Positions 5,470 through 52,000 of a stretch of DNA of 63,962 nucleotides are shown here, in pieces. The DNA lies in the NCBI GenBank assembly GCA_013115125.1, contig JABANN010000131.1:1-63962 (forward strand), read 5' to 3'. Source of the DNA: Perkinsus olseni (taxonomy: Eukaryota). The notes beneath the pieces are model-generated. The model was not told the DNA's origin. It saw only the letters and a program-made list of their open reading frames with translations, and did not search any database. The position numbers and the translations under genes were made by a program. Every line of letters begins with the position of its first letter. The stretch's first letter is position 1.

Positions 5470-5975
5470 ACCAACTTGTTCCAATTGTATAGGTAATAAT
5501 AGGGCGACGGCTACTGCAACCGTAAAAGGGCCCTATCAGTTCAAGGAGGAGCTTGCGACGCGGAGAACATAAACGCGTTGAGGAATTGCAAGAGCTCAAG
5601 ATTGACGAGCAGTCGCGCACGCCTCTGCGATCGATTGAGCCATCATCTTCTCAAATTGAAGTCCCCGCGACGATCTCGACAGTCACCGTGCCTTCCCTGA
5701 GTAGCCACTCGCTTATTCCCTCCAGGTTTCGAAAGGGTCTTGGGCCTCGCGCTTGACCGTATCTAGTGCTCGTATGAATGTTACTCACATGCTCGCTCCA
5801 CCCAGGTTCAATTCCCGGCTCTTCCATCTCTAGAGGTCTTTCGCGTTCAATTGCTGGTTGCCCAGGCCCAATGTAGCCAAGCACATCTCTCATCATTATT
5901 TACTTGCTCGGACAAAATCCGCTATAGAGATATCACTCGTAGTTAGCCTGTTATTGTTGTTTAATAGAATCTTTA

Positions 5976-8592
5976 ATGTCGGTCGAAGCGGTCATGCTGT
6001 GCTTGGACACCTCCGAATGGTGTCGCAACGCTGATTACGTGCCTGATAGAATCCAGGCCGAGACTGAAGCGGCCAACCTCATCTGCGGGGCGAAGTCACA
6101 ACAGCATCCTGAGGTAATTCTGTAGAGCTCAAGGGTCGACCTAAGATTCCTCCTCCATTCAGACGGCTGTTGGAGTATTGACTATGAGCGGCAGCAGTGA
6201 CGGCTCCGGCGTGGATGTAGGCCCCGTCATCGCATCATCAACATCGCCTCGTCACACCGGTCGTTGTCAGCTTCGACAAACTCCCACGACGAATCTCGGC
6301 GAAATGCTAACAGCGTTGTCGAACCTCTCGCCCGAAGTCAAGGACTTCGGCCCGAACGGTCCTAGGTCTGCAGACTTGGTAGTATCTTGGGTTCAACTTC
6401 AGCCATCGGTTAGGGGAATCTTTTGAAGGGTTGGCGGTCTTGTCGATGGTTACTCACTCGAAAGATTCTTTGGAATCTTGACCGAATCTCAGGTCCGGGG
6501 GATACAGACAGCGCAGTTGGTGTTGAAGCACAGACAAAATAAAAATCAAAAGCAACGGATCGTGTGCTTTGTGGGCAGTCCCGTGGGTGCTACTAAAAAA
6601 CAGATGGAGACACTTGGAAAAAATCTCAAGAAGAACAACGTGGCCATCGGTAGTAGTGGTGGGGTATTGGTGCAGTGGTACGCGCTATGCCTGGCATTCC
6701 GGAGGTCGCGGGTTCGAGCCCATCTTGTTCGGCCATCAGATATCGTCAGTTTTGGTGAGGTCGATGCGAACAAGCCCCTTTTGCAAGACCTCTTAGACCA
6801 CGCTCAATCCAGCGGCAACAGCTGCATGGTAAGCAACGCTCGAGTCCACGCCGAATAACAACCAAGCGTCTCATGGGACTCGTCTAACGAATGAATCTCC
6901 CGGAGTACACTGAGGCAACACCCTGGAAGTCGGAGATGACGGTATCTGGTAATCTAGTAAAATCGGATACCGATCCACCATTGGGGTCCTCGAGTCAATT
7001 AGCCTCCGGGTTTGGCGGTTGCGAAGGAGGGCGGTCCATCGTCTGCTCCGTCAACGAGATGAGCGCTCCAGTGGATGCAGACTCACCCTCCGCGTGTCGT
7101 TGGACATGGCCGTTGGGGAAGGGCTTCGCTTCAGGTGGAGGTCCCGCCTTACACTGACCAGATCATGTCCGACGTCCTCATGAGTACGCCAGTCGTCACT
7201 CCCGAAGGAGCAGCTCCTCCTGCTGCTGCTGCCGGTGAGGGAGGCTTTGAGTTCGGAGTGGACCCTAGCCAGGATCCTGAGCTGGTACGTCGTCCACGCA
7301 TGCACATAAGATTCACGTGAGGTCGATCAGGCGATGGCACTGCGCATGTCGATGGAGGAGGAGAGGGCAAGGCAGGGTCAGAGTGCCGCTGCTGGAGGCG
7401 AGGGATCGGCGGCACAGCAGGAAGGGAGTAATACATGAAGCGTTGAAGTGACGGGCTATATACGATCAACTTATAGAGGCGTTGGTCACTTTTATGTCGA
7501 CCTATTATCATAATCGTTATCGGAGAGATGGTGTGCTCTATCGTTTTCCGAAGGTGTTAGTGTCTACCTTGCGGGAATCACTACCGTTCATTGCACAACG
7601 GAAATGTCATATACTCCTTCAGGCACCGCCGCCGCCCCTGCTGCCCCTGCTGGGTCTGCTCAAGAGAGTTCGGCCAGCACTTCGGAGATGGACCCTCGGC
7701 TGCAGGCAGCACTCGCCGACGCTGCTGCTGCCGGGGAGGAGGTTGGTCTGTTCGGAGATGATGATTAGTCGTCCAGTGGCTTCTTGGCAGGTTGATGATG
7801 AACTTCGTCAAGCCTTGTTGTTGTCTCTGCAAGAGTCGGACTCGCAGCAGAACAAACAACAGCAGCAGCAGCAGCAGCAGCAGGAACAGCATAAGGAGGA
7901 AGGTAGTGTCCGAACCCGGGGAGGGAGTGCTTGATGGTTGTCCTACTAGGCGAGAAGAAACCGGAAGAGAATGCCGCCGAAGAGGTGCCTGCGAAGACCT
8001 CTGCTCCCTCGGCTCCGGCGCCTGAGGACGACATGGATGAGGAGTTGAGGAAAGCCCTGATGGAGAGCCTGGAGGATTGGGATGGCGGGTAGGGAAGGGG
8101 TTTCTAACGCAGCGAGAATGATATCTTTCTACGATCGATCATGGATTACTCTTTACCTTACTTAAGTGTCGTAAAGCCTCTGATTGGCTGACGCTATTGA
8201 GCACTGTTCCTTTGGTAGGGAGAAGACTAAAGGCGATGGGGATGCCTTGGCCGAGAAGAAGCAGAAGAAGGACAAACCAGCTGCTGCTGATTCCTCATCC
8301 TCGTCTTCATTCGCCCAGGGAGCCTCCGACGAAGCCGCGATCTTCCAGGTGCAACCTAAGATACCCTCGATGTTAGCGATGCGCCTTCGCGCTTTAGGAC
8401 CCCTCGATGGTTGCCGAGCTGCTCAGTGGACTGCCTGGCGTCGACCTTAACGATCCTAGGATCCAAGAGGCCCTCAGGGACTTGCAGCAAGGGTGAGCTT
8501 CGACCCTCCCCACTAGGGCGTGTAGCGAACTTGTATTCCTCAGGGATAAGGGGGACTCGGCGAAAAAAGACGACGACAAGGAGAAGCAGTGA
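5976..8592 (+). CDS. RPN10: 26S proteasome ubiquitin receptor Rpn10/S5a (multi-exon)
   Basis: Starts MSVEAVMLCLDTSEWCRNADY; vWA motifs GIQTAQLVLKHRQNKNQKQRIVCFVGSP and KKNNVAIDIVSFGE; UIM VDPSQDPELAMALRMSMEEE; C-terminal LPGVDLNDPRIQ. Confidence 0.95.
6661..6735 (+). pseudogene. Degenerate full-length tRNA-like sequence filling RPN10 intron 6650-6739
   Basis: A-box TGGTGCAGTGG at 6668-6678 (T8, A14, G15 and GG at canonical offsets), variable loop AGGTC, B-box GGTTCGAGCCC at 6711-6721; stems pair poorly. Confidence 0.7.
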
Positions 8593-11029: not shown

Positions 11030-12973
11030 ATGATATAACTTCGAGGCGAATGATACGCATAGAAGTGCTAAGTACAGGGTCAGGACGCCAAGCCTGGGTT
11101 AGGTTTCCTCTTCTCCGAGCTCCGAAAAGATACCGGAGTCTTCATCTTTGTTATCGTCATCGTCATCGGCATCCTCGGAATCGTGCTGAGGAGGAAACGA
11201 CAATTACACAGATTATGATAAGACCAATCACAAACATATGTCTAATCGTCAGCGACTCAGCGACGAATCATGTTCTCTCGCTGACACTCCAGCGTAGAGG
11301 TTTTCACGGGCGAGTAGAGGCCTCAAGAAAGAAAAACTTTTTGATGAAAAAAGCGAATTTTGATAATCTCATCGATAGAACGCTCAGTGTTCTTATAAAA
11401 CGGAAGGCAACTCACCAAATCGAAGTCCCACGCTCCGCTGACGGCGCCACTGAAGCCAGTGCGGACCTTAGGAGCTCGCGGAGACCGGTATCTAAAATCA
11501 CACGAAGTGCAACCTTCGACCTAAGATACTTCTAACTCACCCTGGAGGTTTCGTGGGCTCCCTTTGCTCAATTGTCGGTAACTGTTTCAGGAGGTCGACA
11601 AGAGCCTCCTTGTCGGCCTGGCGGAAAAATGCATCGTGTCGGGAGAGAAGCTGATCGACGGAAGGCCTGAACAGAAGGCAATGACGATGTAGGAGAGAAC
11701 GGCGAGATGCCCACCGCTTGCTAGGGTCCTTCTGAAGACAGTCAGCCACCATTTTCACGAACGAGGAATCCCACGGGGTTGACTTAGTTCGCTCTAAGGT
11801 CGGCGGGGGATTCTCTAAGATATTCTTCATGACCTGAATCGAGAAAATCTTCGCAGTGCGGCAGATGCTTCGCCTGCGTACCTTCAATGGGTGAAGATTC
11901 TGATAGGGTGCGCTGCCGTTGGCCAACTCTAACGCCGTCACTCCGAAGGACCAAATATCCGCCTTATAGTCGTACCTGTCTTCGCGTCACCCCAACGGAG
12001 AACTGTGGCAAGGCGACTACCCATTTTTGCTCTGCTCAAGAACCTCAGGGGCCATCCAGCAGGGCGTTCCGACGAAGGTCTGTCGAGACCTGGAGTCTCT
12101 CATCGACGCAGAGACACCGAAGTCAGACAGATACCTGGTTAAGAGAATCTAAGAGGGAATTTGGGGGAAATGTGGTATTACACTCTGCCGTCTAAACTGA
12201 GGAGGATATTGCCCGCCTTAAGGTCGCGGTGAATTTGCTGGTTGGAATGAAAATGACGAAGGGCTATAGCCGTTTCCCGAAGAATGTACGCTATGATCCC
12301 GATGTTCTGAATGATGATAGCAACAGCAGACTACCGTCACCGCGCCACGAAATTACTGTAACTATTACGTTGATGCTGTGACCAGTGCGCTTCTTGAACT
12401 CTCTGATGACGTTCTGGCACGAGCCGCCGTTGATGAGGGGCATGACCAACCACATTTTGGCGTCCGGAGAGGAAAACGCAGCGTGGTAGGTGATGACCTG
12501 GACGCGATGGAAATGACGATTTTCGAGCGGCCGCGGGTATTATCACATTCGGATGAGTGCACATCCGCATGACTTGAAGTTCCTTGCGGATGTCGTCGAA
12601 AGTGGTGCCATCAAGGCACTCGAGATCGATCACTTTAATCGCCGCTGGTTCGCCGGAATGAACGCCCGATACGACAGTAGCCTTGTACCTGGCAAAATCT
12701 TGCTCGGCAGATGCGTATCTTAGGTCGAAGCTGGCACTCCACGGAATGGCTCATATAAGATACATAATTCCAAAAAAGTTCCATACCATTCCAACGCCAA
12801 GAAACGGTCGCTAGCTCGACTCTTCCGTCCCTACGGAAACCCTTCCCGACCTACACAGTAGCGAAAGCACCGTAGCCGATGGAGCACTCGAGTTGATAGC
12901 CTTCAGTAGTGGTGGGCCACTCACTAGGAGGCTCATGCACGCCACCTCCCGATGGCGATGATGTCCCTGTCAT
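11030..12973 (-). CDS. STE20-family Ser/Thr kinase (OSR1/SPAK-like); 3' end approximate
   Basis: [60 protein letters not shown] across many short-intron exons. Confidence 0.88.
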
Positions 12974-15029: not shown

Positions 15030-17144
15030 TCATGGTGGTGAGGACGCGCTCTTGGTGGCACCACCGAAGTACTTTAAGTTTCGATCTCGAACGCTGATGC
15101 AAAAACAGGAAAATTCACAAGTGTGATTAACTGTCGAAGGACTTACTGTTCTCTCGCTGATTGGGACACTGACGGCACTGGAGAGGTTGTTGCCGATCCC
15201 TGCTTACTCTCAGTTGATTCCAGTCGGGCGGTAGCTCCTAAGGGACGACCGATACTGACTGGTTGGAGAAAGGGTTTTGTCATACGCTTAGTTTTCTGCC
15301 ACAATCGGGCCATCAAACTGGTCTTCCTCGGCGACAGCTCACCGCCTTCAGAACGGGTTTGATGACTCGCTTGGGTCTCCCCAAAGGTAGTGCCCTTCTT
15401 AATCAGACAAGGCGAATCATCCTGCAAGGACGATTGCGGTAAAAACGGAAAAAATTTTTCCCCTGTTACTGTAGAGAAGGCGTCCTCCGGGTTTGTGGTG
15501 TGCGGGAAGTTAGAGTAAAATTCCAACTCGTCAAAATTCCACACAGGCCGTAAATTCAAATTCCGGAGGTACCTGCCGTAACAGCACTCAAGAAGGGGGA
15601 AGAGCCAGCAAGACACCTACACTTGGCATTGGACAACGAGCCGCTTCTTCTGCTTGGCAATCGGCGATGCACTGGGCGAAGGAGGACAGTCCGACGATTG
15701 GCTACTGCCAACCTCTGCGTTGGCTGCTTTTAAAACCTACAGGGAAATGTCGATCGCAATCTGTACTAAGGAAATTCTGTCCGAGCGAAAAAATGATTTT
15801 ACGATAATTTTCCCTCATCAACCGATTTTATGAATCATCTCGCTGTGCGACTTACTTTAACAGCTTCCTCGTAAACATCTGGCATTAGTCGTTCCAGCGC
15901 TTTGTGGTCATAAGGTGCAATGGCCATGGTGCGCCGCTCGTACCTGTCACTCTAGGAAGATACAGAAAAAAAGATACTTCCATGACCGACCTCCTCGGGC
16001 ATCCTTCTAGTATGTCCAACTCTCTCAACTTAGAAGGCGAGACTTTGTAAATTTCCCTGAAGAAAGCCATAGTCGATAATCGCAAAAAGCGCACGCCCTG
16101 ATGATCGATATTACCCTTCCACAAGGAGGCCGGCTCCGGGTATGTCCAACAGGTAGGGGAAGAAGTAGTTGGCGTCGTATATCATAGGATAGGGGATAGC
16201 AGTTTGTGCAGCGGTCACGAAGACAATGTCATCACTCCCTCCTGAAAAAAAATGTCATGAGCAGGGATCGAACCTGCGTGGATGCTCACCCCGCGGTAAC
16301 ATGTACTTCTGATTCCTGCACCCCCGCTTGAGAGTTCCTAAACAGGCAATTCTCAAACTGCTCCATACCACACTTTCTCCTACCATATACAAATACTAAC
16401 TGCGGGGTGGGCTCGTACTCGCAGTCACTGAGGCAGGTGCCTTCCAAATGGCTTTCCGTTGGCGATATCAACGACCATGGAGATCGGACCCTGAACCCGA
16501 TTCATAAATGCGCGTATGGGACGCCAGTCGGACCCAGGCCCTCCTCCGCGAGCGCTTTCGGCTGATACTAAAGAACACGAGCTCATGTTGCGACGCATGT
16601 TAGGGGAAGAGGCCATGTACCGGAAACTGAGAAAAAAAGATTCTCATTGATGTGAGTGGTGATCTTTCTGACACCTCTAGCTGTGCTTACCTAGGGTCAG
16701 ACGCAGCAGTGTGCAGAGGTGCCCCCAGCCCTGAAGGGGAGCGTCCAGCACAGGGCGTGGATGATGCATTCCTGGGACGAGGGGGGCTGCCGGGCCCTTC
16801 AGTGAGGAGACTCCAGTAAGGAGCCCGCCTGAGATGGGTGATTCGAACGCTCGACGACAGAAGGCTGTCATCTCCTCCCTACCGAGGGGCGCCGCCGCCG
16901 TTGGTGCTGTTGTTGTCACCGCCGCCGCCGCCGCTGCAGTAGCTACTGAGTGAATTGGTCGAAGGCCAATTGTGTCGAGTAAGGGACGGGGATGAGGAGG
17001 AAGGGGCGCCAACCGGAAGCCCGTTGTTGAACATGATAGAAGTACACGAAGCGACTGAGGATAAGAAGCGAAAGCGTGATCATCCCTGCATGGATCGACA
17101 CGAGAATCTTTTGTTTCGTATCTTCCGTCCTCGACCTCGAGCAT
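15030..17144 (-). CDS. Gamma-glutamylcyclotransferase (GGACT/AIG2-like) domain protein; termini approximate
   Basis: Spliced exons give LVFVYGTLKRGCRNQKYM...PYLLDIPGAGLLVEGEIYKV...LRELDILEG, the GGACT signature. Confidence 0.75.
16242..16289 (-). other. 48-nt spliceosomal intron made of a tRNA 3' end plus oligo-T
   Basis: gtgagcatccac-GCAGG-TTCGATC-CCTGC-TCATGAC-A-T8-cag; removing it restores the GGACT frame (LPRG/GSDDIV). Confidence 0.85.
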
Positions 17145-22792: not shown

Positions 22793-23689
22793 GTTCTTGG
22801 AGAAACCACGGTCAGATCAGATTAGGAAGGAGCATAGGATAATACAAGGGTCGTTGAAGCGCTTGGTACTACCAAGTTGGTAGTGGTTTTTTTGGCATGG
22901 TGGTACAACAGCGCGCTTGGAATCAATAGGTCGTTGGTTCGTTCCCAACCTCAATTCCTCTGCGACTTTCGCCCTCGTGGTTGCCCAGCGCTTCTTCTTC
23001 AGATGCAAGAGAAGCGAGACCTTGATCTCTTCATGCGACTTGCCGAAGCACCATAATCGTTCGCGCCGGCGCGGGCCCTCCTCCGCCACAGCACTATGTA
23101 TACTTATGACGATATATATTCCACTGCGCTTCCCTCGCGTATCTTCTTGTTGTCGTTTACTTTTACTTTTACTATCGTCATTACTGGCTCACATCACAGC
23201 TGAGGACGCTATTACTGGTGGGAGTCTCCTGCCGGTGTTAGCCTCATTAGCTTTTAACCATGCCACTGTTCCAGCCATGGTGATGATGGTGTGAAACTTC
23301 TGTTGTTGAATATGTCCTCATTAGTGGGACCTATTGTGTTTCTGAGATGAAACCATTGTGGGGACCAGCTGGACTGTCTTGATGTGTGGGGTCAAGACAA
23401 AAACACGCCTCTACAAAAAGTCTAGGGCCAAGACTCTTGAAACGAGGTGTTATATACATCAACATGTAGAAGGGATCATCCCTTTTGCCTGCTAGGCTAC
23501 TCTTCGATTTGCGTTGCGCTTTCTAGTAGCGTACAGTTAACAATGTGCTACTAACAATATTTCCGAGGGTTTCCGCGAGGGAGGCGGAGTCCGAAGAAAA
23601 ATCCCCCACTAGGTGGATCGTGCCTGAGTACTCTTCACTAATTAGGCACCCGAACCCCTCTCTTAGAGAGACCTTATCGGCGACAAATT

Positions 23690-24730
23690 GTCGACGACAA
23701 TGGACTTTCACAATGCATAGTGTGAGAGTACGCAAGAAGCAATCATCGTCGCTTACCGGGAGTTATGTTTTGATCCTTCGACGGTACTTCCTGGCAATAT
23801 ACGGGCACCTAACACTACGCGGTGGCAAGTGCCTAGTTTGCAGTGCAAACTTTGCACCTACCTGCCTGGAACCTCGGCGAGCTCATCAGCTTCCGTGGGA
23901 CGCGTGAGTACCCTGTTTTCGCGCTTCTGAAACAGACGGCCCGTCTGAGACGGGTTCGGTTCGGATACAGACAAGGCCCCATACATCTTTCGTGCTGGTC
24001 ACTATGTATTAGACATTGCCACGGATCCCACGAGCTGGCGTCTCTTTCTTCCTGGTGTCTCAACGGTTTTCCCGTAATCATCAGTCTCATATTCGAGCAC
24101 CATCGCTCTCTCCGGCCTTGTTGGAAACGCGTGTCGACTGGAGCGATTTTGGATTGGTCCCCCCGATAATGCTCAGCGAAATAGTGTTCTGCTCTCGCAG
24201 CAAACCCGATGTAGAGCGCTTTTTTCTCTGGATCTGCTCAGGTGGTAGCAGACGGTGTTGGACGTATGCTGTAGACACTAGTGCCACTCGTCTAGTGGGC
24301 CGCACTCCCGTTCCGCACGACGAGTGATCGAGCCCTCGATCGAGATAACACTCTCCAACTTGAGAGTTCGAGCGGCTGGTAAACTCCCGACGGTACAGGA
24401 GCAGGTTGCGGACCCGGTCCGCAACTTGCAGTACCCGCAATAGTGATATCACAGATCTGAGATCAGTGATCTCAGAATCTTCCGCGAACGGTTGTGCTTT
24501 CATTCTGCTCGTATCGATGTAATGGCCCCGCCGCGGCGTCTTTCGGCTCTTGCTTGCGTCGCTGGCATGCAAATCTGCGAGTTCGTATCTTCAAATCAGC
24601 TTCTGTCTATGGTCATTGTCAAGGACTCCTTGTTCGTTCAATCCGTTTTCGGAAGATGGAATCCCTTAAACTCGGTGAAACGGTTATACTAAAAACTCAG
24701 CTGGTAGATCTCAGTGAGATCTTGGGATCT
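23690..24730 (+). pseudogene. Disrupted paralog of the 27.9-29.0 kb hypothetical gene
   Basis: Colinear nucleotide similarity to 27995-28900; in-frame TGA where the other copy has TGG, and similarity spread over several frames. Confidence 0.75.
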
Positions 24731-27921: not shown

Positions 27922-29039
27922 ATGGGAGAGTCAGTACTTCTCGAGCGTTTATCGACTGTTCTACCCTACCTGAATAGGCGCTCGAACCTCTTTCTCGGCG
28001 ACAATGGGCTTTTGCAATTCATGATATGGAAATATGCAGCACCAATCTGCGTTGGTTACCACCGGGAGTTATGCTCTTATCCTCTGACTCTACTTCCTGG
28101 CAATATAGGGGCGCCTGACACTTGCCACCTAGCTCCGTGCCACGGAGTCCGTGGGCGCGTGGCGAGATCATCGGCTTCCGTGGCACTCGCGAGTACTCTG
28201 TTCTTACGCTCAGCTGTCGAAACGGACGAGTTCGGGTCGATCAAGGGCCCCCATACATCTTTCATGCTGGTCATTATGTATTAGATATTGCCACGGATCC
28301 CACGAGCTGCCGGATCTTTCTCCTTGGTGTCTCCTACAATGGTTTTCCTTTAATCGTCAGTCTCGTTTTCGACCACCATCGCTCTCTACGACCTTGTTTC
28401 GAAACGCGTGTTGACTGGAGCGATTTTGGATTTGCCCCGATAGTGCTCTGCAAAATGATATTCTGCTTTTGCAGCCATCCTGATACAGAGCGCTTGTATC
28501 TGAGGAGCTGCTCAGCGGATAGTAGACGGTGGTGGGTGTATGCTGTAGATACTAGCCGGCCGCACTCTCGTTCCGCACGACGCGTCGTTGAAACCTCTAG
28601 GAAGATCACAGCTTTGGCCTGCAACTTGAGAACTGGTCATCTCCCGACGGTACAAGAGCAGGTTGCGGTACTAGTTCGCAATGGTGATAACACTGATCTC
28701 AGAATCTTCTACGATGGACTGTGCGTCCATTCAGCTCGTATTGATGTAATGACCCCACCGCGATGCCTTACGACTCTTGCTTGCCTCTCTGGCATGCAAA
28801 TCTGCGAGTTCGCAGCTTCTGTCAATGGCCCCTGTACGTTCAATCTGTCTTTCGTTGAATTTGGTGAAACAGTTCTACTAAAAACTCTCGCTGATTTACA
28901 TTGGCATTGCAATGTGGTACCCTACTCAATTAGTCGTAGTTCTCAGCGAAATACGGTCGATGGAACGGTTGTCTGGTTCATCAACACTCACCGATCCCGT
29001 GACACGTGTCTGATCGTGTGTGAGAGCGTATTTAATTAG
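27922..29039 (+). CDS. Lineage-specific hypothetical protein split over two overlapping frames (possible pseudogene)
   Basis: ORFs 27922-28284 and 28122-29039; synonymous substitutions versus the 23.7 kb paralog support both frames. Confidence 0.5.
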
Positions 29040-29384: not shown

Positions 29385-29490
29385 TGCTGATTCAGCACAT
29401 TTAATAACTTATTAAATGTGCTGAATCAGCAAAAAACCCAAGCAAGTACATGTGCTTTAAGGTTTCCCCCTCTCAAAGAGGGGGAAACCT
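29385..29490. repeat. Two perfect inverted repeats (23-bp arms at 29385-29431; 14-bp arms at 29460-29490)
   Basis: TGCTGATTCAGCACATTTAATAA-C-TTATTAAATGTGCTGAATCAGCA and AGGTTTCCCCCTCT-CAA-AGAGGGGGAAACCT. Confidence 0.95.
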
Positions 29491-29644: not shown

Positions 29645-32600
29645 GCATCGCGGCAGCACAAGGACTGCGCTCCCTAGCGCCTTTCGAGAAGAGAATCGTA
29701 ATAAGGGCAATGGAGGAGGGGTCCCTCCCGTAGAACAACACGAAGTCTCGAGTTTCGGGCGCAAATCTCCCGTTAGTAGTAGATTCCGTGTCGACCCTCT
29801 CCTGACAACAAGGGAAGAGGGCCGAGGACAAACGCATTCACAACAGGCTGCTGTCAATCCTCCTGTCCTCGGCTCTAGCGGGGTTTAGTATCAACGCGAT
29901 AAGTGATGTGTCGTCAGGGCCTTGTTGACAAGGCATTGGCGATGGGTGACTGAGGTGTTTTCGTCGATTTGGAAATGACATTTCCATTTTGGATTTCATT
30001 TTTTCGGCTTGATGGGTGATATTGATAACCAGATATGAGGCGGGCTTCCTTCCAGGCTACGTGTGGCAGTTCTCGAATGAACCAGGACTGCTTTCAAGCC
30101 CAAATTGTTCTAACTGTGATAACGGTTTTTGGCGAAAAATCGGGTGCTGAGCGATTAACTTAGCGGTATCTTATAGCCTCTGCGTATGTTGTTCTTGATG
30201 GACGCGAGAAGGACCTGCAGGACACGTCACCGTAATCGATCAGGAGTCGCGGCTTCACGTGCTGCCCTACCTCGCCACATATATGCAATCTCAATGAGAT
30301 TGCATATATGTGACGATATATGAGATTATCTCATCAGGACCCGTCTGCCGATGCGCGATGCTACTACTACTGATAACAGTTTTAATATAGGTTTTCCTAA
30401 AACCCGATTTCGATTTTTTCAGTACTATACTAGGAAAACCGCTCGTTTGGGGTATAAAGTCACTATGCAGCGCCATATCGTGATCTCTGAGTGTTGATTT
30501 GGCCTGCGCTCTTCCCCGGCACTTCGCCGCTGGGTAGGCCCGTCCGGATCCAGGGGTTGTATTATCAGGTTGATGGTGATGATAACAATGCTCCCGAGCC
30601 CAGCGGCGGTCTGGCCTCGACCTTGCAGACACTGTTTGAGCAAATGGCGGACGGGTCTAAAGGGCCTGCGGACATTAGATGCTTCTTTGAGCAGTGCAAG
30701 AAGGTCTGCCCGGAGCTCATGCGGGAGCCCTATCGTCAGCACGATTCTCAAGTAATAGGGGATGCTGAGTGCTGGCCTTCTCTGTAATTACGTGATGGGA
30801 ATTCAGGATTGTGGTAGGAGGACGTAACCTGCGTCAAATAGTTCGATATGTAGCCCCGCAGATTGATAATCTAGCGTTATGGTTGTTGGCAGAAGCTTCA
30901 TGACGTCACGAAGCCGTATCATTGACATCCTCGTCTATCGTCGATAGAAAACAAACGATCGTACTGAGTTTGTCTTGAATGGTTTTCAGTGGAGACGGCA
31001 TCACGCACGTCTGACGTGATAGGTGATAGATGTACTTTTTGAATGGTCGAACAATAGCACGTTGCTTATAGGGTATAAACTCTGTTGTAACAGTGGAGCT
31101 GCTAGATGTCGGTTGTCTCGAGCTCGTCTTCTTTGGGCGCGGCATAGCCCATTGAGCCCTACTGTCGCCTCGGCCGTCTCCGGTTGTTGCCAAAGGTTTC
31201 ATCCTGTTCAAATATCGCAACACCACCGCTTAGTATACGCTAGAGGCATACCCGGGCGGGTATGCCGGGTATGCATACCCGCCTTCAGGTCAGGGTGGGT
31301 ATGATGATCCGTGCGGGATTTGGTCATCCGGGGCTCGGGCGGGAGCAGAGGTTGCGCCCCGTAAAGTGAAAATTATTTCGCTTCAGCTTCGCTCCGCCCT
31401 CAGGTCCTTTTAGAGGCTGTTTTGGATGGTCTACCGTCGGAAACGCGGAAAATGTTTCAATTCAAATTAAGGGATTCTATCTTATGTAGGTTTTAAGACC
31501 TTCCAACGTTTTAACGCGGGTTAAAACGGTAGTACTCAGGTGATAACTGTAATTACGTCAATCGTGTCAATACGACTGATCACATGCTACGCCTAAAAAT
31601 CGGCGCCCACCCTCACCCCGGCGAGCCAGTACTGGTGGAACTCCATCGAGAAGACGTCAGTGAGAAGTGGGGCATTCAATGGGATGAGGAGGCGTACAGA
31701 GGACGACGGGAATTGGTAGGTCACTGCGGCTGTGGTTTTCTTGCACGGGGGACAGGCACTTTATAATGAGCGTTTATGATCGGTTTCATCATCTGTGAGA
31801 TTTTGTAGAACCGTTTTCCAACGGCGCACATTTTGGGTGGTGCTCATTCGCCTCTACGCCAGAATTGCGTAGCCTGATGGCTACGACCGGCATGCTCAGC
31901 TGTGCGTTGTGAGACTCTGGTGGATCGTATCTATTGTGGTCCTCGCTATACTTTAGCGGGGGTTGTGTCACTAGTATTCGAGAAGCAGGAATGCGCAGGA
32001 TTATCGCGCGCCACCAAATTATGTTCACAGGTAATTCGGTCTGTGTCGGCGGGTTCGAAGGCTGCCCTGCAGCTGTCCGGTCATATCGGATGGAAGTGCG
32101 TTCGAGTGAACGACAGCACTTCTCGGATAGACATGCGGCAAGAGATGTGCCAAAGACGGAGTGTCGAGATGGCCCTGCTACCGCCAGAGAGCATCGCGAG
32201 CAGCTCATCCGACTTGGACTGGCTCGTCAAGGCAACATACTGTCCTCGTAATAATAATCGTTTGGGTGAATTATTCCGTTGGGGCGTGTGAACTGCTCCC
32301 CGCTGCGTATAAGTGCTGCTTAGAAAAGTCCGTCTTTTACTCGTCACTCGCCACGAAATTTAACGGAAACTCGAAAATTTCAGATCGTCAATTTTTCAGT
32401 CACCACGGCGGTATGAACAATAGTCGAGAAACCGTCGATGTTAGATTTATCGATCGATTCCCTTCTATCCGTTTTACTGAGAAAAAATTGTTTCAGAAAA
32501 ATATTTTCGGTTAGTCGGAACTGTTTGCTTTTCAGAATTGAATCGGGAGGTCATATCCGACTACCACTGTGACGAGTGCAAGGCCGACACCTCATGTGAG

Positions 32601-34313: not shown

Positions 34314-35477
34314 AGGCTTATCGATCGATAAAAGCTTTCCTTATACATCCTGCTGTACTTAATCAGTTACATCGCAGTACTTATCCTGCGATGGTATAAT
34401 AATCGCCACGTCTCTCGCCACAAAGGGAGACGTCGCTGCCTGCTGTCACGTCAATTCCGCATAACGCCACCGTCACACAAAAGGCTGAGTATGAGTAAAT
34501 CCACCCGACGCACGTACGGTTCCTCAATAACAGCAGCCTTCGTTCTCTCTTGTTGTATGCATCACGGTGTAGGTCATACGATGCTGCCGCTGCTGCCACC
34601 TGAGGACCATGCCTCCCGGCAACCATCTCGTCCAGCCGGAACAGCGATGACGGTGGGTGATCGCACCGCTGCATCAATCCGCTTCTGGTCGTATCAGCTG
34701 TCGACTGTCTTCATGTCCTCGACAGGGATGAACCTCTCTGCTGCCCATCGTCGCTTTCGTTTGTGTGATCGCTGAGGGTTCGCTCAGGTTTCGGTTGAGG
34801 AGCTTGGTAGCATCACTCTGGAGGTGCATCGAAGGCTCCCCGCAGGAAGGCTCGAGTCGGCCTCGACTTTGCAACAGCTGCTTCATGACGTGGTTGAGTT
34901 GATAGTGCCTTCTGAGTAACATTGCATGCAAACCATGATGCTTGCGGATGTCCTTCCGTTGACGGTCTCCTAGAGAACAGAAATTGTCGTGTGACTATCG
35001 CCCGGCGCTTCGAGACCGATCCGGAGTAGAGCTTAGCCGGCACCGAGGGTTCCCAGCCCGAGCGACTGCGGTGCTGCGGCTGTTCCAATGGTTCCTCGAG
35101 TCTCTCACGAACAGTTGACAGCCCCCGCTTGCTTCGAGTTTGCGAGGACCGTCCTGAGCTCAATCCCAAATGATAGGGTTGTCTGTTGTCACGAGAAGGG
35201 CATCGTACAACAAAAAGGCAGTAGGCAGGAGTCGAACTCGGGACCTTTGCAGGCTCAACGTTAAGGGTCTCCGTAGCTTGCCACTCCAGTTGGTAATTGT
35301 AGCCTGTAACAATACTAACTGTATGGGAGAGTGCGTCATTCCGTCTCCGGATCCGTTCAGCGTTGCCTTTCCCCTCGTTGGAGGATGCTCTTGCCACTCA
35401 TGCATTTTCTATTATCCGTCTTATGTTGTTGTTGGCCAGTAGTGATGGGACGGGACAAAACTGTTTCCTGGTATCAG

Positions 35478-43773: not shown

Positions 43774-46393
43774 TCAATCGTTCAAATGTACCGCCTTGGC
43801 CTCGATATCCCTGGCTTCAGCGGTGATTTTGGGGTCCATGACAGGCATCGGACCGCGAGGGACATTGGGTCCCTTCATGTGGTAGAAAAGCATGTACGCG
43901 CTCGTGTTGGGGCGCTCCAGGCCACTCAAGAGACGGTCGACCTCCTCCTTGCTGATGTCCGTGATCTCAGAATCATTATACTCGTGCCACCTACCCCGGG
44001 TTGCCTCCGACCTCCGTCCAACTGTGATGTAATGGCCGTTCTGGATGGTCTCCCCTTTGTGGAGGATGGAGCCATAGCACTCGTACTGGGCCCCACCAAA
44101 GGACAAGTCGTCCATGTCCGGGTAAACCACCGTCTTCTCCTTTTTGAAATCACAACTTTCTATGTCGAATGAAAAACGATAAAGCACCAGTATGAGATGG
44201 GTCGGCGGTGGGCTGCTCAGTTCCACCCATCGCTTGGCGTCCCTCTTGCACCCGCAGTTCTCGCAGCTGTACTGATTGTTGCCTGTCATCAGCTCCGGCT
44301 CCGACCATGTCCTCAGAAGACCAATGACATCTAGGTTACCCTGGCCCAGGACCTCAGCTTCCCTCGGCACACTCAGGCCGATATCGGTGCAGGTCTCGGT
44401 GCGCTTCGAGATGGTATGGCAAGTTTCGCACTTTGTCTTGTGTACTAGCTCCAACGCGAAGATATCTCCCACAAGTCTCTGCTTGCATCTGAGACGAAAA
44501 AAGATTCTCCTCGTACCACACCACGACCAACTTACCCGCCCAACTTGTCCAGGATCCATCGAGCGCTTTCGGTGGTGTCCTGCTCCTCCCCAGTGCGAAA
44601 ACTCGGCGGCAGAATTTTGATGAAGTCGGAGATTTCAACGTAAGCGTACGGGGTCAGCAACATCCGCGCGAAGAGGAGACGAAGGCCGTCCAGGATCTTC
44701 TTGCCCTCCTCGAAATCATCTCCCTTCAGGTCGTCAGTTTCCTGCAGTTGGAAGCCGTAGATGGAAGAGCAGAAGGCATCGGTCAGGAACAGCATCTGCA
44801 GGAAGACCCCAAGGTAGCACCTGAGGCGGCAGGACGGTGGTGGTCATTGGTAGCGATGAAAGAGACCAAGAATACAAAAGCGAAATCACTTGTAGTGTAC
44901 TATCTTCAACATTAGATACCAATACAGACTGACTGCTTCTTCGCCCACGATGCCTGTAATTTTCCGATTCCTCCATGGCTGGTTCGCAATGCTACAAATA
45001 TCCACGACGCAGCGACCTCACCCATGACGACCTAGCTTCGACCTCGGATACTCATACTCCCACCTTCTCTAAATCATGACAAATATCCCAATATCGCTAA
45101 CCGCCCCCTGATTTCCGTTCAAAAAGATACCAACCTAACTCCCCCACCGCCCTTATTACGTGTTGTTGTAGTTTTGTATGCCTACCGTATGCTTCCTGAA
45201 TTTTACGGTTTCTCCATTAGATCCGGTCACATAAACCACGCGAGGCTTCTCTTGAGCGGCTGGCTGCTGAGGGGCCACCTGCTGCTGCTGCTGTGGCGCC
45301 GCAAAGTCCCCCACGACGGGTAGAAGGTAATTCGTCGTCGGCATCTGACCAGCCCCAGTCGGCCAAGGCCCGGCAGTGGTAGTAGAAGCTGGGGGCATCG
45401 GCATCCCCTCAGGAGGGGTAGTGCTGATCCGTGCAGCCGTCGGTGGTAGCCCTAGCATGGCAGCAGTGGTGACCTGGGCGGAGCCGTAGGCAGGTGTCAT
45501 GTCCCCAACGTAAGGTCGGATGAGGTCGATGAGCTCTTCGATCAGGGACAGAGCAAACGGTGGAAGGCCCTCGACTCTACCGGACTCCCACAGCGTTCGA
45601 AGCCTCTCATAATACGGCAGCAAACTCGCGTCGAAGATCTGTGCGACGGCGCCATGCAGTAGTATAGAGCCCTGGCCACCATGTCCTCCATTCCGGAAGG
45701 GACCAGCGGGCTTGAGGATCATCAGGAGCTGTCTTAGACCGTCCACAGCTGTGGCCGGGCCGTGCAACTTCGCCGAGAGCGTTCTCAGCATGGACTCCGT
45801 CATGACCCGCCAGTCCACGCCTCCGCTGGAAGCCGACTTGTCCGAATAACACTGCCGAATGACACAGCGGAAATAGGTCGTCACCAAGGAGTATCTAAGG
45901 TTGAAGCATGTCCATAACAAAATAGTAGAGACGAAGCTCACATCGGGTAAGGACTGCTCCAACGGTCCATGTTGACCATCCCCATAGCATACTTGGGTGG
46001 AGGCATCGCCGGTATCGATATCAACTTGACCCAGAGGGCCATCATGTCCTCCCCTCCCCCATCCGACGCCAGCAGCAAGGCCTGCACCGTCACAGCCAGC
46101 GTCTCCGGCCGCAAAAGGAGAAGACAGGCCTGCAACTGAGGGCTCGCCTTAGCCGCCATTTTGAAGTAGTCCGCCAGGAGATAGCAGTCAAAGGTAAGGG
46201 TATTTGGGAACTCCTTCTTGACCCTCATCATCAAACTAAAGGCCATCGGGGCTACTCGATTGGCAGGGTCGGGAGCGTCCATCCAGGAGAGGAGGAGGCT
46301 GAGCATCTCCTCGGGAGCCTGGGGCATGCTCGACGGGACCTCCGTCCACAGCCGTAGGAGGCCCAAGGGGGTGCGGTGGTAGGTTGTATCCAT
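43774..46393 (-). CDS. Ubiquitin-specific protease (USP/C19)
   Basis: Cys box GIQNYNNT/CYLGVFLQML, EQDTTES, YSCENCGCKRDAK, His box ILHKGETIQNGHY, SAYMLFY. Confidence 0.9.
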
Positions 46394-46490: not shown

Positions 46491-48856
46491 TTACAAGGCC
46501 GTTCCCCTCTCGAGATTAGCCTTGATCTCCTTAGTGTACCTGCAGAAAAAAAATGACCGGTGCCGGGATCGAACCTGCGCCCCAAGCCATACTTGCCGAA
46601 CTCCCTTTCGATCTTCCTATTGAAGTGCTGGTTACGAGCATTGATGTAATCAACATCCTCATCCGGATTGACCAGACGGCGTCTGAGACAAGGACCGCTC
46701 TACCATTGCCGCCAGTCCGTCGATGGCATAAGAAGAACTTTCAAATTAAGGAAGACAATAACATACTCATGAATAACTAATAACGGCAATCTGAGTGAGA
46801 GACCTTTCAGGATGCAGCGCTTTTACGATCATAATTTCTTCCCTCAACTTTCTTGGGATCAATTTTTTGAACCCTCACGAGTTTTCTTCGTTGATTCTTC
46901 TTCCGAACTTCCATGATTTATGAGTTTCTACTAGCCTACTCCCTACTTCATAATACTAGGAGAGCTTCTATCTAGTAATGATAAAACTACCTCCACCAAA
47001 ACTTTGAAACTGTCGCGAAATTCAAGAGTCCCAAAAAATCTGCAGCTCATACTCCCCCCCCCCACACCTGGAGAAGGCCCTCCGCTTGTCATCAGCTTTC
47101 TTCATGGCCTGGGCCAACCGCTCCTTGCCCTCCTCGGAAGGCTTCGCACTGACCAGATCCTCGTCATCGTAGAAGGCTTGCCCGAGAGCTTCCTTCTGCT
47201 TTTCATACCTGGCAAGGAGGGCTGGCGAAGGCTTCTATAGGGGGAGGGCCGTACTTCACTTCATTAAACTGCACATCCACAAGTTTCTTATCGTGCGCTC
47301 GATAGAGAGAATCCTGAGGTCGAGCATGCAAGATACAAAACAGGTCAACCTGAAGACCGCCTACTTCATTGAAGACCTCCCATCCAAAGGTATGATTATT
47401 GCCCTTTCGAGCCTTCTTCTCAGCCCTAGCCTCAGCCATCGATGCTTGCTCGTTGAGATACCATCGCGTGTGGTCCCAATCCTCCCCCTTCTTATACTCT
47501 GACCAACCACCACCTCCCAATTCCCAAGCACCTTCTCCAGTACTACTTCTCCGCTTCCCTCCTGTCCCCTCCGGAGCATCCTGATCTTCCCGAGGGCCCC
47601 CCTGCTGACCCTCCTTATCTTCCTTCAGCACCTCCTCTTGGTTAGCAACCCGCGCCTACCGGAAAATACAGTCACCACGCATCACACTGCCTCAAGGCTG
47701 GCCCTCTTCGCTAGTCGTCAGCGCAATAGTTTCACGATGGAAAGTCGCAAGCAATGCGGAAGATTCGATCCCAACTCACCTGGTTCATCTTCAATCTCAA
47801 CTCGAACATCCTCGCCTCCCTCTTATTCTTGAACCCAGCAGACGGCTGAATAATAACGTCCTGCTCAACCCACTCCAAGGGAAGGCGTCTCACCTTGACA
47901 GGAGTAGAAGATACTTCTTCGACCTCCGACTCGCTGCTGGCTCCAGCCTCGTCCTCATCGTCCTCCAAATCAATCGGTATGTCTTCCGCTGACTCCTCGC
48001 TTTCCGCAGCATTATCAAGCAGCTTTTTGCCTGCGATCAGCATCAGTAACCGACCCCCCTGTTGGACCTAGCCCGATGCCCCCGTACTACCCAAGGAAGC
48101 AGCAGTGGCGACCCCTTCAGCCCGGAGCTGCTTTCGGCTCTTGAATCGGCCTTGCTCGACTGCAGCTTTCCTCTCCTCTAGAGCCTCGTCCACTTCCTTT
48201 TTGCCAACCATACCACATTTCACGATAATTATATCAACGCGAGGGCGATCTTGGTCATCAGTCGGGACCTTCTCTATGGCTCTGATAACCTCCATGCCTC
48301 TAGTGACCCGTCCGAAGGGGACATGGCGGAAATCCAGCGCCCGAGACCTAGCGTACGTAACCATGTACTGCGAAGTGTTGTTGTGGCGCTTCTCTCCTTG
48401 ATAAGTGGTCGTCAAGATACCCGCCCCACTATGCTTGTTGATGGAACTACCATAAACGATATCGCCGGAGCGAACGCCCGAACCCTAGACCTACTTCTCA
48501 TCTCGGAAGGGTTTGCCGTAGACCGACAGACCACTGCTACCGTCATTAGCAACGATATCGCCTCCCTGCAGTCCCTCGCCCTTCACCGATTTGAAAATCT
48601 TCGAATTGCGGTAGGTCAGCTCAGGGCCGTATTCTCCCGTACCTACAGGATTTTCTTTACGCGATGACTATTATCCATAAGATATCCTTGCTTCGCTCCG
48701 CTAAGATTTGCCCCATTTTCCCGTCCTACATAGTCCTCTGAAGTTCTCAGCCGTCTCCGGACAGGTATCAGCGAAGAGTTCGAACTCCACCCGACCACCC
48801 GCAGCCGCGCCGATCTTCACCTCCAGAAACACGCGAGGGTTACGTCGATGCCTCAT
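46491..48856 (-). CDS. Cyclophilin-SYF2 fusion protein
   Basis: N-terminal cyclophilin (NPRVFLEV...FELFADTCPETAENFRGLC, HVPFGRV) and C-terminal SYF2 ([50 protein letters not shown]). Confidence 0.88.
46540..46592 (-). other. 53-nt spliceosomal intron containing a tRNA 3' end plus oligo-T
   Basis: gtatggcttggggc-GCAGG-TTCGATC-CCGGC-ACCGGTC-A-T8-ctgcag; removing it restores SYF2 FGK/YTKEIK. Confidence 0.85.
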
Positions 48857-48886
48857 GACGTTGTACAAGGGCGGAGAGACAAAACC

Positions 48887-48932
48887 CTGATGTCCGAACA
48901 TGGAATCGAACCCGGGACCTCCAAGTCCGCAC
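48887..48932 (-). other. Putative 46-nt 5'UTR intron with tRNA 3'-half (B-box)
   Basis: gtgcggacttGGAGGTCCCGGGTTCGATTCCATGTTCGGACATCAG, aligning to the 3' part of RPN10 intron 6650-6739. Confidence 0.55.
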
Positions 48933-49072: not shown

Positions 49073-52000
49073 TCAGTTTCGCTTTCGTTTATGACCAGCA
49101 GCATGATGGTCCTTGGCATCCCCTGCAGCCAGTAGGGGTTGGCGTCTACTCATCCCCTCGTTGATCTCCTCCTTGGGTACGTCGTACATGAGCTTGAAGA
49201 GCCCTGTGCCGAGATGGACTGGGTTGCCCATGATGATGGACTCGGAGACACCGACGACCGGGTCTGGCCGATTGAACCTGGCCATCATCACCACGGTCTC
49301 CAATCGGTAGGAAATTGCAGGGAAATTCCGGCGGGTATATTCTCATAAAGGGGTACGTATAAAAACGCGGCGATTCCAAAACCGAGCTCGTTTCTTCCTG
49401 GACCAAAGATACCATCACCGAAAGACTCCCTTCACATCAAGTATGACAACTCCCGTACGTTTCAATTGGCCTGGCTGAGCTAAATACTGCGGAGATTGAC
49501 CAGAATTTCGCGCTAAGAAAAAAATTTCGCACCTTTTTTTCACGGCATGATAATAGGCAGTGAGATTCACAAGCAAGTCCATAAGTTTTCACTTCCGCAG
49601 CAAAAGAAGTTTAAGCTCGTTAATTCCGATCGACCGCTTCGACCTCAATAAAAGGGCGTATGGTCGTATTACTAGGATACGTTTTCTCAGAGTCAACCGG
49701 AGGGATCGATAGTTTTGACAGGAAGACCATCGGGCCAAACCCCAGCTTACACCGCGGCCTCGAAGAGGAAGTCCGACGTCTTCTCGAAGGAAGCAAGCAT
49801 CATAGTGGAGTTGCTCATCTTGGAGATACCAAATCGATTAATACCCAACGTCTCACCACGGTATCTGATCAAGGGAGAATGTCAACAACCAACCTACTCT
49901 CGTATCTTGCACGCTTCAACCTAAGATACCCCGTTAATATTACGTCATACAATCACCCAGCATCTGAATATGTCTGTAATCCACCGACATACCGAAGTGC
50001 TTCATAATGACATCAATCTCGGACATGATAGACTTCCTAGCCGCCTCGATGCCCAAAACTCTCTGCACCTCCAAGACGTGATTACTGACGGTCTTCTCAG
50101 CTACCACTCCCTCAATACCCATCACATCCTGCAGACCATAGCCCTCCACCAGCAGCGAGTATATAGTATCATTAGTGCCATCCTTAGCCTCTTCCTTATT
50201 TACCACCACCCTACTGCACTGCTTCAGTCCCTTCACGGAAGCTTGGGGAAGGGCATTCCTCAAGGCCTGCACTTCAAACCATAGCGTTTCCGGGTTGGGT
50301 GGGAGGGTACGGCCGCGACTGTCGACAGCTCCCGCCGGGCGGATCGCCAACTTCAGTTTTCCGCGGGACTCGATGCATTCTGGGCGGATCTTGAGCCCTC
50401 CCGGCAGCGCCCCCTTCGCGCAGAGAGCCTCCTTGAGCTCGTCCATGGTCAAGTCCAACTGCATCCTACGCAGGGTCTCACCACACAGCTTGACGATGAG
50501 GTAGACTCCCGAAGGTTCGTACACCTGAGGATGGACGAGTTGCGGAAAATTTGGTATCACCAAGCCAGTACCTGTTTAATATACTCGCAGATATCGCCAA
50601 GCACTGTCCTCTGAATCTTGCTCTTCACCATGAAGGCAGCCGCTTCCACCCGATCCTGTTCCAGCTTACCTGCAACCAAAGATACCCCTCACCGCAGCGC
50701 AAAGATTCCCTCCGCCCTACAGGAAATAATCGGCGTAGAGATGGTCTTAGCCGCGTTAATAATCTCCTTAATCCTAGGCACACCCAAAGTAACGTTCATG
50801 CTAGCAACGCCAGCAAAATGGAAGGTCTTCAGGGTCATCTGCGTCGCCGGTTCTCCGATACTCTGGGCACTCGTAGCCCCCACAGCCTCCCCAGGTTCCA
50901 TCAACGCCCTCCTGTACTTCCTCGCGCAGGTAGTCATGAAGGACCTCAACTGCGCTTCTGTCAAAGCACAGCTAAGGTCGCATAGTGTCCTCTCCCTCGC
51001 GTCGTTCGGGGACCTCTCGTCCACCGCCAGACCGACCTTCGCCCTCTCCTTCTCCATCTCGGTCGCCATATCCCCAATGAACTCCGTCAGATCCCCCGTA
51101 AACCTACTGGTGTCCAACGACGTTAGCGGACAGATGGACTTGACCTCCTGATCCACCTGCTGGATCAGTTGATTCGTCAAAGAACGATACTCCCTCGGTA
51201 AAAGAGCAACCTCATTGCTATGATGCTTCTCCACAACATGCTGGACGTGGTTCATCGTGTGCTCGAAATTCAAAGGCTTGCTCTTGCCCTCCATCATCGC
51301 CGGATTCAACCCATCATCACCGAACACGAACTGGACCACAGTGCCATCGCTCGTTCTCACCGTCATGTCGTACTTCAAACCCAGGTCCTCCAAAGCCTTG
51401 ATCAACTTCCTTTGCATGTACCCAGTCTCAGCCGTCTTCACAGCAGTATCAACCAACCCTTCTCGACCACCCATCGTATGGAAGAAGTACTCGAAGGGGT
51501 TCAACCCAGAAAAGAAGCTGTCCTCTACAAATCCTCGTGACTGCGGAGTCTTCGAAAATTTCTTGAAGTGCGGCAATGTTCTGTTCACAAAGCCGTTTTG
51601 GATCCGCTGGCCGCCCACATTCTGCTGTCCCAAGCACACAATCATCTGCGACAGGTTAATAGGGCTTCCCTTAGAGCCGCACTGCGCCATAATACGAGGT
51701 TTGTTAAACCTCGGAAGGACCTTCTCCAGCCTGTCACCCACAGAGTTTCGTATTTTTCCCAACTCGCCATTAATGACAGCCTCCAGCGTCTGCTCAGCAT
51801 CGCAGCCCGGTTTCAACGGCAACTTGCCTTGTTTGTACTCCTCTATTTTCTCTGCAACATACGCGTACTTCTCTGCCACTTGCTCTTTCTTAAAGGCCTC
51901 AATATCAGGGCTAGCAGTCACATCATCGATACCAAAGGACATCCCCCTCGTACCCAGCCACCGAGCGGACAGCTTCGACAAGCGCCCAAGGCAAGCAGCG

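Follow-up and report, generated by a model that had tools for sequence, protein, structure and literature searches.

A spliced RPN10 intron of Perkinsus olseni that probably consists largely of a decayed alanine tRNA-like sequence

The origin of new spliceosomal introns is argued case by case; among their sources, transposon-like introners and the filler DNA left where breaks were repaired are well documented. A 63,962-nt stretch of the Perkinsus olseni genome (contig JABANN010000131.1 of assembly GCA_013115125.1, hereafter the window) raises the question of whether a transfer RNA (tRNA) may be another: the fourth intron of its RPN10 gene is almost filled by a tRNA-length unit. The original prediction for this locus, made from the sequence, had described a unit in which the A and B promoter boxes of RNA polymerase III (Pol III) were kept and the structure lost, as in tRNA-derived short interspersed elements (SINEs). 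On balance, we consider intron 4 to be an ordinary spliceosomal intron in which 75 of the 90 bases would be the decayed remnant of an Ala-like tRNA with a GCCA end, pre-dating the divergence of P. olseni and P. marinus. If this is true, an intron body wholly traceable to a tRNA would be a concrete new source of introns and a datable example, placed before the split of these two species, in a genus known for massive amplification of tRNA genes.

The gene and its intron were established from DNA and RNA contigs. A DNA contig of run X1 is colinear with the window across RPN10, and contigs of the three RNA-type runs (X7, X8 and X11) define seven GT..AG joints in the gene. The features concerned are the following.

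5977..7745, plus strand: RPN10 (PSMD4) gene, the span covered by RNA contigs; the gene runs on past 7745
6114-6162, 6217-6270, 6379-6492, 6650-6739, 6829-7134, 7285-7330 and 7428-7622, plus strand: the RPN10 introns, from RNA contigs
6650..6739, plus strand: intron 4, 90 nt, GT..AG, phase 1, between NNVAI and D-IVSFGE, in frame and free of stops
6648>6739 (cut +1), plus strand: joint across intron 4, in three RNA contig sets

Positions 6650-6739 are a genuine spliced spliceosomal phase-1 intron, because the RNA contigs of all three runs (3/3) skip exactly these 90 bases, with GT..AG ends; the six other introns, of 49, 54, 114, 306, 46 and 195 nt, are likewise skipped. The interior of intron 4 is left uncovered by these contigs, which are uninformative on small transcripts. 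The intron opens with GTAGTA and closes with CATCAG, the exon upstream (6640-6649) ends in GTGGCCATCG and exon 5 begins with ATATCGTC, so that the junctions, marked here by slashes, read ...AACGTGGCCATCG / GTAGTAGTGGT GGGGTATTGGTGCAGTGGTACGCGCTATGCCTGGCATTCCGGAGGTCGCGGGTTCGAGCCCATCTTGTTCGGCCA TCAG / ATATCGTCAGTTTTGGTGAG. The flanking exons code for ...KKNNVAI and D-IVSFGE, which belong to the conserved core of RPN10/PSMD4. At the protein level, exon 4 matches P0121, a protein named Perkinsus olseni 26S proteasome non-ATPase regulatory subunit 4, with 100% identity, and the P. chesapeaki and P. marinus proteins with 98% and 96%; the annotated proteins of all three species (3/3) run NNVAI-DI(V/I)SFGE, with intron 4 absent. 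On the genome, a stop-free open reading frame (ORF) of 143 residues (6427-6858, plus strand) passes from intron 3 through exon 4 and intron 4 into exon 5. ORF-based gene callers will read through an intron that is in frame and lacks stops, and will mis-annotate it, as exemplified by an ORF from a sister species (P0122, described below).

The tRNA-length unit is laid out within intron 4, on the plus strand, as follows.

6661..6735, plus strand: tRNA-length unit of 75 nt, Ala-like (GGC in the loop, G3-T70 pair), with a GCCA end
6661-6667, plus strand: 5′ strand of the acceptor stem, GGGGTAT, followed by TG at positions 8-9 of the unit
6668..6678, plus strand: A-box-like TGGTGCAGTGG, with one mismatch to what we take to be the consensus, TRGCNNAGTGG
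D arm of the unit: GTGC-AGTGGTAC-GCGC
6691-6697: anticodon loop CTGGCAT, within the anticodon arm TATGC-CTGGCAT-TCCGG
6703-6707, plus strand: variable loop AGGTC
6711..6721, plus strand: exact B-box GGTTCGAGCCC
T arm of the unit: GCGGG-TTCGAGC-CCATC
3′ strand of the acceptor stem: TTGTTCG, then the discriminator G, then CCA as the 3′ end
6732-6735, plus strand: GCCA end, followed by TCAG and then by exon 5
6751..6754, plus strand: TTTT in exon 5 (codons S-F), the first run of four Ts 3′ of the unit and the sole candidate Pol III stop

An A-box with a single mismatch and an exact B-box at tRNA spacing are thus present, as are the CTGGCAT loop with its GGC and the GCCA end; the boxes, the loop and a GGCCA end had been claimed from the letters. 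The two boxes are 32 bases apart, and the T run, the kind of site at which Pol III terminates, follows 30 bases past the B-box. Pairing is found at 14 of the 21 positions of the cloverleaf: 5/7 in the acceptor stem (counting three G-T pairs, G3-T70 among them), 4/4 in the D stem, 2/5 in the anticodon stem and 3/5 in the T stem. The claim that the acceptor stem is unpaired is therefore right only in part. The anticodon and T loops are 7 bases long, as in tRNA, and all of the positions that we take to be invariant in tRNA (8, 10, 14, 15, 18, 19, 21, 32, 33, 37, 48, 53-58 and 61) fit. The segment that a parent tRNA-Ala gene would share is CATTCCGGAGGTCGCGGGTTCGAGCCC. Outside the unit the intron has 15 of its 90 bases, namely an 11-base leader with GTAGTA and the 4-base tail TCAG.

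When a cloverleaf template was slid along both strands of the window (127,764 frames), frames had a mean of 7.8 pairs (sd 2.3), and 14 or more were reached in 0.77% of them. The pattern of A-box plus B-box at tRNA spacing has one match in the window, which is the unit, whereas dinucleotide shuffles yielded it in 1 of 300 in its loose form and in 0 of 300 in its classic form. Extrapolation of the loose pattern predicts about two chance matches per 42-Mb genome, and the case therefore also needs the additional tRNA positions, the residual pairing and the relatives described below. Its tRNA length, its conserved D-, T- and variable-loop positions and its above-chance pairing mark the unit, on sequence criteria, as a tRNA-derived relic, in line with the original prediction of a tRNA-derived unit, no longer a tRNA, inside a real RPN10 intron.

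The possibility of a working tRNA was considered and rejected. ARAGORN at default settings reported 0 tRNA genes across the window, and tRNA was absent both from the 13 Rfam matches in the window and from the 3 in a 201-nt slice around the unit (E<=10). When the ARAGORN thresholds were relaxed to 90%, the single call was unrelated (61541-61635); at 80% the unit was among 48 calls, mostly noise, and at 70% there were 264 calls. The fold of the intron (-28.2 kcal/mol) is no better than that of its shuffles (-30.4 +/- 3.4 kcal/mol; z = +0.65), 146 of 200 of which were at least as stable. The anticodon stem pairs at 2/5 and the T stem at 3/5, and the unit is no tRNA at present.

How old the arrangement may be is suggested by P0122, a 122-residue ORF on an 8.1-kb contig, 53 of whose 54 residues up to NNVAI match P. 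marinus RPN10. After NNVAI it continues GSKYGVMVCALVNIREVVGSKSCSVLWKYLYVDRYHQFW-stop. The last seven codons and the stop are fully determined and read AG/ATATCATCAGTTTTGGTGA. Exon 5, whose P. marinus translation is DIISFGE, begins with these letters when they are read in a different frame; the ORF therefore reads into a 100-nt intron at the same codon and in the same phase. Since this P. marinus-type intron is known through a translated ORF, one third of its positions are undetermined. BLASTP aligns the first eight intron codons without gaps (GSKYGVMV and GSSGGVLV), and comparison of the back-translation with the P. olseni DNA gave the following, from 5′ to 3′.

5′ 23 bases: fit at 13/18 informative positions
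CAGTGG of P. olseni (6 bases, in frame; the A-box core): without counterpart
TACGCGCTA: fit at 6/7
Anticodon-loop region: length differs by 2 bases
GGAGGTCGCGGGTTCGAGCCC: fit at 12/16, with A/T in place of the conserved B-box C
3′ remainder: 18 bases longer, ending ...TAYGTNGAYAG, without GGCCATC

The three fitting blocks (13/18, 6/7 and 12/16) are colinear. In a global alignment of the P. olseni DNA with the degenerate P0122 sequence, z was 2.64 and 3 of 200 shuffled peptides did as well, while for the 3′ part of intron 3, tested likewise, z was 0.63 and -0.11. The read-through translation thus shows itself compatible with the same variable-loop and T-arm core at the same codon and phase, and we read the intron and its tRNA-like core as probably older than the olseni/marinus split. 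By the same comparison the A and B boxes appear not to be both conserved, nor does the 7-base repeat discussed below. The claim that the promoter boxes have been kept thus finds no support across species, as the P. marinus type lacks CAGTGG and has A/T for the conserved C of the B-box. Further read-through ORFs of this kind were searched for, and P0122 was the one found.

An ancient position shared with distant alveolates had been named beforehand as a finding that would speak against the original prediction; the position proved to be shared, so far within Perkinsus only. A metagenome scan with exon 4 yielded 45 loci, 19 of which were read, most of them contigs of 1.2-2.2 kb with an unbroken frame, probably transcripts and as such uninformative on introns. 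The loci of highest identity (77-81%) are of this short, unbroken kind, and the end of one locus (L018) resembles adapter sequence. Six distant lineages seem to be genomic. In five of them the intron is absent here (L031/L032; L036; L037, L038, L039 and L041 of L037-L041; L040; L042), and in the sixth (L022) an intron of 57 nt lies 9 bases upstream of the intron 4 site. These lineages are not close relatives and therefore give no date for intron 4.

Copies elsewhere in P. olseni were sought by comparing the X1 DNA contigs (42.1 Mb) with positions 5700-7800 at a likeness of at least 80%. The sole extra depth over the unit came from one 28-base piece of another contig (6694-6721, 3 mismatches, that is 25/28), whose flanking sequence was not found in the window; the bin covering the 5′ half of the unit (6623-6693) had zero extra depth. 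A second full-length copy of the intron was found neither in the window nor, at this likeness, in the X1 contigs. The threshold misses old diverged copies, and a relative inside the window itself (82%, with a 3-base gap) escaped detection:

48885..48923, minus strand: 5′-truncated relative of the 3′ part of the unit (variable loop, T arm and tail TTCGGACATCAG), 42 kb away

This relative reads TGGAGGTCCCGGGTTCGATTCCATGTTCGGACATCAG. In its alignment to 6700-6739, which has a single gap of 3 bases, 32 of 37 bases agree (blastn E 1e-4, 82% over 39 nt; nhmmer E in the two directions 0.058 and 0.043). Among the 17 aligned bases outside the general T-arm consensus, 16 agree (CCAT, GTTCGG, CATCAG); the tail TTCGGMCATCAG is among them, and so are the two bases responsible for the broken T-stem pairing of both copies. 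The likeness begins in the variable loop and halts exactly at CAG, the 5′ half being missing. The relative sits 33 nt upstream of the ATG of a cyclophilin on the same strand (Pro_isomerase matches on the downstream ORFs), where it may be a candidate mark of a 5′-UTR intron or of a spliced-leader acceptor. The unit would thus have at least one, and perhaps two, partial paralogues but no family. A single copy had been named beforehand as evidence against a SINE-like repeat, and the unit is indeed effectively single-copy at high identity in the X1 contigs, which tells in part against one; with no high-identity copies elsewhere in one DNA assembly, it is shown not to be a young repeat.

The junctions of intron 4 also carry a short direct repeat.

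6643..6649, plus strand: exonic GGCCATC, coding for V-A-I
6731..6737, plus strand: intronic GGCCATC, overlapping the GCCA end, with AG next

The repeat, reported in the original prediction, is real: the longest word common to exon end and intron end is 7 at intron 4 and does not exceed 4 at any of the six other RPN10 introns; random pairs of 12-mers share 7 with P = 0.0026. Its proposed reading as a target-site duplication fares less well. The second copy is followed by AG and not by G, so that there is an extra A, and recovering the RPN10 coding sequence means removing GTAG...CATCAG. Moreover, the second copy is part of the tail TTCGGMCATCAG, which is common to the relative at 48885-48923 in the absence of RPN10 flanks, and GGCCATC is absent from the P. 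marinus-type copy of intron 4. The repeat may have come about by chance, through microhomology when the unit was inserted, or through a local change that arose later in the olseni lineage.

Taken together, these observations lead us to favor the following course of events. An Ala-like tRNA sequence would have entered the RPN10 site before the olseni/marinus split, and this insert, with its 11-base GTAGTA leader and TCAG tail, would have created an intron instead of joining an older one. We regard creation as the likelier course because the 15 non-tRNA bases are too few for an earlier intron (at least 39 nt); Perkinsus intron lengths are given as 39-1622 bp, the majority below 100 bp, in the portion of PMC3101222 dealing with them. 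The GCCA end hints at a reverse-transcribed mature tRNA. Later drift would then have eroded the stems in P. olseni and, in the P. marinus type, altered the tail at the 3′ end as well as the core of the A-box, leaving the intact A and B boxes of P. olseni as survivors that drew attention and not as a maintained promoter, for which the cross-species comparison appears to give no support. The unit would thus be a curiosity of intron origin, decaying and normally spliced, and no active jumping element.

Several observations weigh against this course of events. The P. marinus-type intron is seen via a translated ORF only, the z-score of 2.64 is modest, and the taxon of P0122 is inferred from the 53/54 identity. 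About two dozen positions that we take to be invariant in tRNA are unchanged in P. olseni, yet at least 7 stem pairs are broken; ascertainment explains this survival in part, perhaps not fully. Intron 4 looks more conserved than intron 3, a possible sign of constraint. The tail common to the unit and 48885-48923 ends exactly at the 3′ splice site, as would be expected of a mobile intron-like unit more than of one isolated capture. Finally, invasion of an older intron would be an alternative to intron creation.

Alternatively, the unit may belong to a low-copy intron-like mobile family, either introners in a broad sense or sequences transposed through excised intron RNA, a reading that we hold possible but rather unlikely. 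Here the unit would bring its own 3′ splice site, and perhaps a 5′ site too, and the 7-base identity with the exon end (P about 0.003) would reflect pairing or microhomology at insertion. New copies would be made from RNA and would often be 5′-truncated. The relative at 48885-48923 (minus strand) speaks for such a family: it shares 32/37 bases, 16/17 of those outside the tRNA consensus, its likeness ends exactly at CAG and its 5′ half is missing. A third locus outside the window matches 25/28 bases of the same segment, two other likely introns of the window end in a piece resembling a tRNA 3′ half, and every relic with an orientable neighboring gene lies in sense. However, the relatives number two or three, none is full length and the nhmmer E-values are marginal (0.04-0.06); terminal inverted repeats and a clean duplication are absent; the P. 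marinus-type orthologue lacks the shared tail (...TAYGTNGAYAG), which may be a later olseni-specific change; and 48885-48923 is no more than a candidate intronic copy. Because the shared tail ends at a splice acceptor, a mobile intron-like or tRNA-seeded origin nevertheless stays alive.

The two other likely introns just mentioned are located as follows.

46541-46593, minus strand: T arm, 7 bases, A, T8 and CAG at an apparent intron end
about 16243-16290, minus strand: the same arrangement at an apparent intron end

By nhmmer the two are similar to one another (E 0.002 and 0.07). In the case of 46541-46593, a SYF2-like gene would have an intron of 53 nt; the Pfam SYF2 match ends just ahead of it, and the exon join is taken from the reading frame and from what we presume to be the SYF2 C-terminus. 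The intron end near 16243 is a candidate whose exon structure the reading frames did not confirm, and an Rfam slice (16200-16420) gave only a 12.3-bit tRNA-Sec match (E 9.2). Weaker tRNA-like scraps, recognized by eye and by ARAGORN at thresholds of 70-80% only, were noted at 5733-5825 (plus), 22885-22955 (plus; nhmmer E 0.56) and 35217-35287 (minus); they are T-arm-like hairpins, one of them followed by TTTTT. No tRNA gene was found in the window, in which several such scraps are present.

A tentative wider reading, about as doubtful as that of a mobile family, is that Perkinsus built spliceosomal introns from tRNA-derived sequences landing in coding exons in sense. Such copies would survive as their ends give a splice acceptor, either a T-run terminator serving as pyrimidine tract plus CAG or a ...CATCAG, and some units might spread onward as RNA. 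The window would hold three cases: RPN10 intron 4, the 53-nt SYF2 intron (46541-46593) and the intron end near 16243. Should this pattern of tRNA 3′ halves at intron ends, in sense, hold true, Perkinsus would lend itself well to the study of intron gain; otherwise what is left is one decayed tRNA copy in an intron, of no consequence for RPN10. Published observations describe P. marinus as rich in near-identical tRNA genes, with 9, 46, 116, 23 and 349 copies for five types, among them 349 for tRNA-Leu-CTT and 116 for tRNA-Gly-GGA, and as host to Dada DNA transposons that target tRNA genes (in the portions of PMC3706591 concerned with them). No report of tRNA-derived introns or introners in Perkinsus was found in the literature, supplements not being covered.

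We think it improbable that the unit has been retained because it does something itself within the intron, whether as a site binding the Pol III factor TFIIIC, as a nested Pol III small RNA or as an aid to splicing. The positions that we take to be invariant are all intact in P. olseni despite the broken stems, CATTCC-GGAGGTCG-GGGTTCGA is the best-kept segment in both the P. marinus-type copy and the third locus, and intron 4 is more alike between the species than intron 3. Nevertheless, the P. marinus type has the A-box core deleted and the conserved C of the B-box changed, and the structure of the unit is no better than chance.

Still less credible is the tRNA-derived SINE of the original prediction, with Pol III boxes kept by selection for transcription and flanked by a target-site duplication. 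The putative internal promoter boxes are present at the sequence level, 32 bases apart and with the T4 run 30 bases past the B-box, and the 7-base repeat is real. Moreover, tRNA-like relics are frequent in the window: there are 4 exact B-boxes against 0.66 +/- 0.87 expected (1 of 100 shuffles reaches 4), and 6 matches to GGAGGTCNCGGGTTCGA with at most 3 mismatches against 0.73 expected (0 of 100 shuffles reach 6). However, the 42.1 Mb of X1 contigs hold one other 28-base match and no multi-copy family at 80% likeness or more, nothing extends beyond tRNA length as a body or as an A-rich, LINE-like tail, the second repeat copy has an extra A and belongs to the shared tail, and the P. marinus-type orthologue lacks the A-box core and has an altered B-box. 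That a GC-rich intron should look like a tRNA by chance, for which one might cite the roughly two matches to the loose pattern expected per 42-Mb genome (from 1/300 window shuffles) and the failure of Rfam and default ARAGORN to see any tRNA, is essentially refuted by the joint evidence, as the boxes coincide with a fully paired D stem (4/4), a total of 14/21 pairs (a count reached by 0.77% of frames), the right loop lengths, AGGTC and GCCA, and as a paralogue (48885-48923) and a compatible orthologue exist.

Other features of the window were noted in passing. A motif, GTATCTTAGGTYGAAGC, occurs 17 times with at most 3 mismatches against 0.24 expected, for example at these sites.

12715-12731, plus strand
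49913-49929, minus strand
45891-45907, plus strand
56709-56725, minus strand
6133-6149, minus strand

A hairpin-ended form of it (GTATCT...AGATAC) is found 6 times against 0.09 expected. The motif lies in sense at intron 5′ ends in the gene for the largest subunit of RNA polymerase III (RPC1) and in antisense near the 3′ end of RPN10 intron 1, whose motif region is matched by other X1 DNA contigs (6116-6152 and 6130-6147). It looks like a multi-copy, intron-associated short element. The RPC1 gene itself (49940-54545, minus strand; about 50% identity to the best matches in the searched length range) is a coincidence with the Pol III theme and no evidence, and at the border of two of its coding blocks lies a tandem 38-nt duplication carrying the GTATCTTAGGT motif twice (52201-52289, minus strand). 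Two near-perfect palindromes with 1-base spacers were seen at 29385-29431 (23-nt arms, 100%) and 30272-30316 (22-nt arms, 95%), the former with weak microRNA-precursor matches in Rfam far below threshold. Paralogous blocks of 76-98% identity pair 23755-24600 with 28061-28820, 1325-1596 with 2183-2454, 55345-55544 with 57860-58059 and 61140-61291 with 62579-62730, the last two pairs in duplicated DnaJ and PTPLA genes.

Among known systems, yeast extra-TFIIIC (ETC) sites have a B-box outside any working tRNA gene, as here, although the back-translation suggests that this B-box is not conserved in the sister species. A tRNA-derived SINE is defined by a tRNA-related head with A and B boxes, in which stem pairing is dispensable; the unit shares such a head but lacks a tRNA-unrelated body, a LINE-like or A-rich tail and a clean duplication, and in one assembly it has no family of copies with a likeness of at least 80%. 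In Daphnia, new introns with short flanking direct repeats have reportedly been ascribed to the repair of double-strand breaks, and a direct repeat at the junctions and foreign filler DNA becoming an intron are common to both cases, whereas here the repeat is imperfect (the extra A) and absent from the P. marinus type, and the event is old and not polymorphic. Introners, known in Micromonas, Aureococcus, dinoflagellates and Amoebophrya (PMC7789003 for part of this list), resemble intron 4 in that what was inserted makes up the intron and that a short direct repeat marks the borders with the exons. They form families of many similar introns, usually with inverted repeats, whereas the unit derives from a tRNA, lacks inverted ends and has no more than 2-3 relatives, all of them partial; as for a splice site supplied by the element, the likeness to 48885-48923 ends at CAG, and the 5′ end is without counterpart. 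tRNA pseudogenes and CCA-ended retro-copies show the same tRNA length, D- and T-loop positions, eroded stems, encoded CCA-like end and low copy number. What sets the RPN10 unit apart from these, reverse transcription being suggested here by GCCA only, is that the copy accounts for almost all of an intron that is spliced from a conserved coding gene, the remainder being 11 bases that supply GTAGTA and 4 that supply AG.

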